Shown: in pieces, positions 58,431 to 59,097 of the stretch | How the letters are laid out: every line of letters starts with the position of its first letter | Numbering within the stretch: the stretch's first letter is position 1 | Sequence record: PP925831.1 | Origin: Escherichia phage Pinarejo | Strand: one strand, 5' to 3' | Length of the DNA stretch: 64,000 nucleotides | Notes under the pieces: generated by a model | Seen by the model: only the letters and a program-made list of their open reading frames with translations | Told to the model about the DNA's origin: nothing | The model's database searches: none | Made by a program: the position numbers and the translations under genes

Positions 58431-58648
58431 GTAACCTTTAAGCAGTATTCTTCTACATGCTGTTTACGACCTTTCTTATCAATAAAGGTATATTCAACGA
58501 ATGTTCCAATGTAGTCTTTATCTACATCATGCGGACTATTAATTGGACATTTAGTAAGGCAAATGCGTTCCCATTGACGAATAATTACTGCCTTATTCTT
58601 TGGGTCATATGGATGTGGATAATGTATATTCATAATAACGGTTCCCAA
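58421..58648 (-). CDS. hypothetical small protein
   Basis: 75 aa ORF. Confidence 0.4.
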   Translation of the reverse strand: MGTVIMNIHYPHPYDPKNKAVIIRQWERICLTKCPINSPHDVDKDYIGTFVEYTFIDKKGRKQHVEEYCLKVTWL

Positions 58649-59097
58649 TCAACAATCACAATTTCTAATTTAGAGGAATATGTATCTAAAATCCCCTCAA
58701 TAATATCCCAGTTCCCTTTACCTATGCCTGCACCAATCCTAGGCATATAGATTGTAGGTTTAATCAGTTTATTTTCACCAAACTCATTTAATTCTAACAT
58801 ACAATTCATTAAAGCGGAATACTCAAAATTTGGCCCTGGTTGAAATTGAGTATAAAGGTTGAAGCAATACGCTTTATGAGTCCTAAAGTATTTTTCATAG
58901 ACTGAGTAAGAACCGAGTTTAGTTACATCACCCCATTCAGTCTGTAATTTATCAGCTTCCAAAATTTTAGGGAAAGCTTTGGTTAATTGACCCGCTACGC
59001 CTGAACCCATAGTATGAAAACAATTGCATCCATGCGCAATATTTTTACCTTCAGCGAAAAGGGCGACAATATCGCCCTTGATATATTTTACAATCAT
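58630..59097 (-). CDS. macro-domain protein (putative ADP-ribose binding/hydrolase)
   Basis: 155 aa; KGDIVAL...NIAHGCNC...GSGVAG and PRIGAGIGKG resemble macro-domain motifs. Confidence 0.5.
   Translation of the reverse strand: MIVKYIKGDIVALFAEGKNIAHGCNCFHTMGSGVAGQLTKAFPKILEADKLQTEWGDVTKLGSYSVYEKYFRTHKAYCFNLYTQFQPGPNFEYSALMNCMLELNEFGENKLIKPTIYMPRIGAGIGKGNWDIIEGILDTYSSKLEIVIVDWEPLL

Follow-up and report, generated by a model that had tools for sequence, protein, structure and literature searches.

Several macrodomains that act on thymidine-linked ADP-ribose have been described, and they can be told apart by the residue with which the central strand ends. The DarG antitoxin (T. aquaticus, 5M31/5M3E; M. 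tuberculosis, 5M3I; T. africanus, 7OMU) and the human protein TARG1/C6orf130 need a catalytic lysine at this point, i.e., K80 in the T. aquaticus and M. tuberculosis DarG and K84 in TARG1 (PMC5179494, PMC9411070). TARG1 likewise removes thymidine-linked ADP-ribose (PMC8501950). In Streptomyces coelicolor SCO6735, the lysine position is taken by Gln85, and the protein is a very efficient hydrolase of the thymidine-ADP-ribose made by DarT; its Q85A and Q85E variants are inactive, N27S is almost inactive, and G128E lowers the activity, with N27 locking the rotamer of the glutamine (PMC9411070).

Stand-alone macrodomains countering the DarTG2 system have recently been reported from two phages. For gp104 (AdfM) of phage PhiKZ, the removal of ADP-ribose from DarT2-modified DNA was documented biochemically, and the N23A substitution reduced the activity, i.e., the conserved asparagine is needed (Cell Rep 2026, PMC13309987). 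In phage T4, a saturated transposon library propagated on a DarTG2-expressing host (HIDEN-SEQ, Nov 2025) revealed tk.4 as the single conditionally essential gene; its clean knockout rendered T4 sensitive to DarTG2, while the gene was dispensable on E. coli K-12 devoid of this system, and it was renamed adfM, for anti-DarT factor Macrodomain (bioRxiv 10.1101/2025.11.20.689424). These genetic data are published as a preprint and were obtained with plasmid-borne DarTG2, and the enzymatic removal of ADP-ribose from DNA is the authors' own inference, which “seems likely” to them (bioRxiv 10.1101/2025.11.20.689424). Our literature search returned no further publication linking Tk.4 to DarT, nor any biochemical work on the T4 protein; in the CmdTAC paper, macrodomains are not tied to the escape of T4 and occur in the reference list only. 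Overall, the T-even phages appear to carry layered erasers: AdfA, the NADAR enzyme AdfN (for the guanine modification), and Tk.4/AdfM (for the thymidine modification).

The tk.4 gene and its surroundings

The window, i.e., the whole stretch of DNA analyzed here (64,000 nucleotides of Escherichia phage Pinarejo, PP925831.1), contains in its ORF list an ATG-to-TGA open reading frame of 155 codons at 58630..59097 on the minus strand. The reading frame is real: all the motifs quoted from it in an earlier note on this DNA are present in its translation. Its product is identical to T4 Tk.4 (NP_049723) at 155 of 155 positions (100%), and the surrounding DNA is 94–98% identical to that of T4; the phage is a close relative of T4, with T4 itself excluded. 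Many Tequatrovirus records contain the tk.4 DNA without any difference (100% identity), under labels as diverse as “macro domain protein”, “Poa1p-like family protein”, “ADP-ribose binding module protein”, “phosphatase”, and “hypothetical protein”.

The T4 gene has been annotated as macro/A1pp for years, although the earlier note did not name it as T4 tk.4. The observation and the macro-domain reading made in that note were right; the protein is the already known T4 Tk.4/AdfM and, since it is identical to that of T4, the window brings no new biology. The suggestion that the protein could reverse a host defence based on ADP-ribosylation is supported by the published genetics of the identical protein, comprising both transposon depletion and knockout (bioRxiv 10.1101/2025.11.20.689424). 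The gene is embedded in the following layout:

59094..59097, minus strand: ATGA overlap of the vs stop and the tk.4 start; translational coupling, with a GAGGA Shine-Dalgarno-like sequence upstream
58630..59097, minus strand: tk.4/adfM coding sequence; 155 aa, 17.5 kDa, pI 5.9; a single stand-alone macrodomain
58630..58633, minus strand: ATGA overlap of the tk.4 stop and the tk.3 start, read from the sequence; the same 4-nt overlap is present in the T4 record
58421..58633, minus strand: tk.3; DUF7202

Tight, translationally coupled packing of genes is typical of T4 early regions, and the gene order vs–tk.4–tk.3 with its ATGA overlaps is the same in T4. The placement of the gene “downstream of the tk cluster” has to be turned around: in the direction in which tk.4 is read, tk.3–tk.2–tk.1–tk follow it, and tk.4 is the upstream gene. 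The flanking genes include vs, tk.3 (DUF7202), vs.1 (SLT), and regB, and a Pfam search of the ten proteins flanking tk.4 found neither an ART-like domain nor a darT among them. The gene vs (59094..59435, minus strand), coupled to tk.4 from upstream, encodes the valyl-tRNA synthetase modifier and has no Pfam match; it becomes important for the growth of T4 in minimal medium (HIDEN-SEQ preprint, bioRxiv 10.1101/2025.11.20.689424).

Promoter-like sites between 57000 and 61000 were no commoner than in shuffled sequence (14 vs. 14.6 ± 4.5), and the proposed transcription unit of tk.4 therefore follows from gene packing and the T4 literature only. The top sigma-70-like match of the region (60471..60499, minus strand; TTTACT-17-TATAAT with an extended -10 TG) is located just upstream of regB and could drive an early regB–vs.1–vs–tk.4–tk.3 transcript. 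On the plus strand, antisense within the 5' end of tk.4, a hairpin with an 8-bp G+C-rich stem followed by a T-run (AAGGGCGACAATATCGCCCTT GATATATTTT) spans 59059..59079. A “terminator” is annotated at this site in some related phage records, and the hairpin might stop antisense (late, plus-strand) transcription.

While the Tk.4 protein shows no difference from that of T4, tk.2 and tk.3 are separated in the window by an additional small ORF (58215..58430, minus strand), which is absent from T4. It encodes a hydrophobic protein of ~68–71 aa (MSQTSILKNAIV...), listed as hypothetical in the annotation of phage vB_EcoM_G10400, and the alignment with T4 ends at 58420. Another difference concerns the segment of the T4 homing endonuclease mobD (T4 56457–57257), for which blastn found no counterpart in the window: where T4 has mobD, ~950 bp of different sequence (53780..54734) are present, consistent with a mobile endonuclease gene that some phages carry and others lack.

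Fold, family and active-site residues

The profile search and the structure prediction proposed in the earlier note, along with the pattern of conservation, all agree on the macro-domain assignment. Pfam Macro (PF01661) matches at 27.7 bits, above its gathering cut-off of 22 (E 2.9e-6; profile positions 2–113 of 118). The AlphaFold2 model, built from a 67-sequence alignment with homologues down to ~35% identity, reached a mean pLDDT of 95.1 and a pTM of 0.90 and displays the three-layer alpha/beta/alpha fold of macrodomains. In a Foldseek search against the PDB, the model matched TARG1 (1e-9), Poa1p (2e-9), BT1257, DarG, and SCO6735; these matches place the predicted structure of Tk.4 in the ALC1-like (TARG1/DarG/SCO6735) class. 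By both structure and sequence, it is nearer to TARG1, DarG, SCO6735/BT1257, and Poa1p than to macrodomains of the MacroD, PARG, or viral types.

Profiles of DarG also match Tk.4, i.e., NCBIfam NF048014 with 30.3 bits (2.5e-7; equivalog cut-off 250; profile positions 2–146 of 338) and the PADLOC profile with 1.3e-9 (positions 2–145 of 329), which agrees with a relationship to DarG in its macro part only. The identification of Tk.4 as a strict DarG homologue was rejected, with its score far below the equivalog cut-off, no C-terminal domain, no adjacent darT, and the lysine replaced.

The Tk.4 family comprises ~1200 clusters at 50% identity (E <= 1e-30) in a library of 1.84 billion proteins, and every member whose context was checked resides in a phage. 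Conservation was followed in the 67-sequence alignment and in a larger set of 140 sequences, consisting of Tk.4 and 139 independent representatives of 50%-identity clusters. For comparison, the sequences of DarG, TARG1, BT1257, and SCO6735 were taken from PDB alignments, and that of TARG1 was verified against 2lgr. The relevant motifs and residues are as follows:

59020..59034, minus strand: H22-G23-C24-N25-C26 motif; N25 is the conserved active-site asparagine of macrodomains
59020..59028, minus strand: C24-C26; Cys26 in 139/140 and Cys24 in 125/140
58993..59010, minus strand: Gly-rich loop 1, M30-G31-S32-G33-V34-A35; N-terminus of helix 33–41
58951..58953, minus strand: D49; invariant (140/140)
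58846..58860, minus strand: N80-L-Y82-T83-Q84 at the strand end; Q84 occupies the catalytic-Lys position of DarG K80 and TARG1 K84
58852..58854, minus strand: Y82; invariant (140/140)
58714..58743, minus strand: Gly-rich diphosphate-binding loop 2 by alignment, P119-R-I-G122-A-G124-I-G-K-G128

The asparagine N25, invariant in both sets (67/67 and 140/140), is aligned with N27 of SCO6735, N23 of PhiKZ AdfM, and the Asn of the TVN motif of DarG. Loop 1, the counterpart of MGKG in DarG and WGKG in SCO6735, has G33 and A35 invariant in the 67 sequences (139/140 and 140/140, respectively, in the larger set); G31 is variable in the smaller alignment and present in 110 of the 140 sequences. In loop 2, P119, I121, G122, and G124 are invariant among the 67 sequences, with G122 and G124, the equivalents of SCO6735 G126 and G128, retained in 140/140. 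The alignment hence contains the glycine-rich phosphate loop on which the earlier note had made its reading depend (G33, G122, and G124, invariant in 67 homologues).

At the strand end, Q84 is invariant (67/67 and 140/140) and N80 is present in 139/140. Both MAFFT and profile-sequence hhalign put Gln84 (N-L-Y-T-Q) on Lys80 of the T. aquaticus DarG (N-F-P-T-K), and in the MAFFT alignment Gly126 falls on Asp125 of TARG1, so that Tk.4 has no Asp there. With hhalign, Q84 falls on Q85 of SCO6735 (NLYTQ/ANMIGQ) and N25 on N27; N25, Q84, G122, G124, and H22 all possess counterparts in SCO6735 and are invariant or nearly so. The nearest characterised mechanistic relative of Tk.4 is SCO6735. That the change from Lys to Gln has left an inactive, binding-only macrodomain is unlikely: the glutamine is essential for catalysis in SCO6735, and Q84 and N25 are both kept in 140/140.

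Four further residues (Cys24, Cys26, Asp49, and Tyr82) set the Tk.4 family apart: neither DarG nor SCO6735 has a counterpart of any of them, and at the position of Asp49 both carry Tyr. The four are candidates for a catalytic or a structural role. Together with Gln84, they may constitute a new active-site arrangement, in which case the family would represent a distinct catalytic lineage of macrodomains with substrates beyond the products of DarT2, e.g., other base-linked ADP-ribosylation of DNA or RNA or the phage's own Alt/Mod marks. The action against DarTG2 would then be only one face of Tk.4 function, but we regard such a lineage as rather improbable.

Proposed mechanism and its alternatives

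The reading that we favor, and hold to be quite probable, is that tk.4/adfM encodes a stand-alone macrodomain enzyme of the early region acting against DarTG2 by an SCO6735-type removal of thymidine-ADP-ribose. We infer for Tk.4 an enzymatic protection, a thymidine-ADP-ribose DNA substrate, and an SCO6735-like mechanism; on the strength of the SCO6735 equivalents of Q84, N25, and the glycines, the likely mechanism proposed is a Lys-independent removal of ADP-ribose from the thymidines of phage DNA. The toxin DarT2 attaches ADP-ribose to thymidines of single-stranded phage DNA, which blocks replication. According to our scheme, the two Gly-rich loops of Tk.4 would most likely bind this ADP-ribose. 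The distal ribose would be positioned by Gln84, itself held in place by Asn25, and the cleavage would be water-mediated and independent of Lys; the hydrolysis of the thymidine-ribose bond would give normal DNA back. Tk.4 may thus be envisioned as an “orphan antitoxin” devoid of the C-terminal DarT-binding domain of DarG. That it binds DNA is not obvious from the sequence, because the equivalents of Lys34 and Lys89 of SCO6735 are missing and the protein is mildly acidic (pI 5.9).

Since the catalytically dead SCO6735 Q85A, DarG K80A, and TARG1 K84A still inhibit DarT in vitro by direct interaction, SCO6735 most strongly (PMC9411070), the protection conferred by Tk.4 could be partly or wholly non-enzymatic. 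A mainly non-catalytic protein, which would bind and inhibit DarT2 or else shield or sequester the ADP-ribosylated sites or an NAD-derived ligand, is also in line with the lack of the DarG/TARG1 catalytic lysine, and the T4 data published are genetic only. At the same time, Tk.4 with its 155 aa lacks the DarT-binding domain of DarG, as reflected by the extent of its profile match (2–146 of 338), and high hydrolase activity is found in SCO6735, its relative of the Gln type. The retention of N25 and Q84 in 140/140 sequences, from phages of many hosts, suits an active site better than a surface for the binding of one toxin. We therefore regard mainly non-catalytic protection as doubtful and continue to prefer the enzymatic removal of ADP-ribose.

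Another possibility is that Tk.4 is primarily an enzyme of small molecules, e.g., an ADP-ribose-1''-phosphate phosphatase or an O-acetyl-ADP-ribose deacetylase that would remove immune signals derived from ADP-ribose or the by-products left by RNA repair or NAD metabolism, with the action against DarTG2 as a side effect or as one role among others. The HxCNC motif at the N-terminus, similar to that of the yeast ADP-ribose-1''-phosphate phosphatase Poa1p, speaks for it, as does the RNA-repair neighbourhood of a homologue in one distant phage. Two homologues ascribed to bacterial MAGs (P0072 and P0118) really belong to T4-like phage contigs (L003, 344..3739 and 4913..5809; L004, 6001..8941), which carry Rnl1, Dda, PNKP, and a dCMP deaminase; in L003, the macro gene is situated between RNA ligase 1 (Rnl1) and a Dda-like helicase, with PNKP ~2.5 kb away, a weak hint of an association with RNA repair. 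The same two homologues were examined for toxin genes as neighbours of bacterial Tk.4 relatives, and no TA context was found. The gene neighbourhood, however, differs between T4 and the distant contigs, and the “phosphatase” names stem from homology and not from assays. Moreover, the sole phenotype in the genome-wide screen was specific to DarTG2, with tk.4 otherwise dispensable, and DarT2 targets DNA with no soluble signal involved. A primary role in small-molecule metabolism is hence unlikely, and the removal of ADP-ribose from phage DNA is still the preferred explanation.

The earlier note had also considered that the protein could regulate the phage's own ADP-ribosylation, and it was correct in placing modA and modB in the same genome (11324..11926 and 11923..12546, both on the minus strand). 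If so, Tk.4 would reverse or tune the marks that Alt, ModA, and ModB place on host proteins, the RNAylation by ModB among them. The products of Alt, ModA, and ModB carry arginine-linked ADP-ribose. We know of no cleavage of arginine-linked ADP-ribose by macrodomains of the TARG1/DarG class; the closest characterised relatives of Tk.4 cleave ADP-ribose linked to thymidine or to Asp/Glu, not to arginine. Nor does the distribution of the genes speak for this idea: a Tk.4-like macrodomain was found in 2750 phage records, which extend to many groups beyond the T4-like phages of enterobacteria, whereas ModA/ModB-like genes occur in 1010 phage records and are confined to the enterobacterial T4-likes. 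No ModB-like match was found in the Tk.4-like-bearing phages of Pseudomonas, Vibrio, Acinetobacter, Aeromonas, and Bacillus or in those of the Felix-O1-like and rV5-like groups, and the genome-wide screen revealed no phenotype of tk.4 when DarTG2 was absent. What can be said for such self-regulation, beyond the presence of both genes in the window, is that SCO6735 and TARG1 act on protein substrates too (PMC9411070) and that Legionella MavL is an arginine-specific macrodomain (PMC10951314), so the cleavage of Arg-ADP-ribose by a macro fold is possible. Because MavL exists, a small probability is kept for a role of Tk.4 in the turnover of the Alt/ModA/ModB marks, which we otherwise deem highly unlikely.

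Comparison with known macrodomains

Tk.4 would work like the DarG antitoxin, but it is not a member of the DarG family. DarG is a protein of ~330–340 aa with a C-terminal DarT-binding domain, an adjoining darT gene, and Lys80, whereas Tk.4 has 155 aa, neither this domain nor a darT next to it, and Gln in place of the lysine. TARG1 belongs to the same fold class, but the residues of its catalytic dyad, K84/D125, correspond to Q84/G126 in Tk.4. The yeast Poa1p, also of this fold class, has the H-x-C-N-C motif at the N-terminus in common with Tk.4; it is, however, a phosphatase of the small molecule ADP-ribose-1''-phosphate and has Thr-Ser at the position of the Lys or Gln, where Tk.4 has Gln.

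Closer counterparts are SCO6735 (5E3B) and BT1257 of Bacteroides (2FG1/2AFC), which are Gln-type ALC1-like hydrolases with ~23–30% identity to Tk.4. Still, SCO6735 is chromosomal, whereas Tk.4 is phage-borne, and the residues positioning the DNA in SCO6735 are not retained: Lys34 is replaced by Ser32 (Ala/Ser in the family consensus), and there is no Lys at the Tk.4 position corresponding to Lys89. The mobile loop following the glutamine is longer in SCO6735, and hhalign opens a five-residue gap opposite it in the Tk.4 family. The mechanistic refinement offered by the present analysis is that T4 Tk.4 lacks the lysine needed by DarG and TARG1 and matches the Gln-type solution of SCO6735. As a caution, neither the mechanism of DarG nor inhibitor designs for DarG should be transferred to the Tk.4 family.

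The name AdfM was given independently by two groups to two phage macrodomains of different sub-clades. PhiKZ gp104 keeps the F-P-T-K of the DarG type and matches DarG at 1e-24 to 3e-19, whereas Tk.4, which is of the Gln type and has ~17% identity to gp104, matches it at only 5e-4. The gp104 protein is imported into a phage nucleus, a structure which T4 lacks. The placement of T4 Tk.4 in an SCO6735/BT1257-like sub-clade and of PhiKZ gp104 in a DarG-like, Lys-type one, as read from their sequences, suggests that phages have reached this counter-defence more than once.
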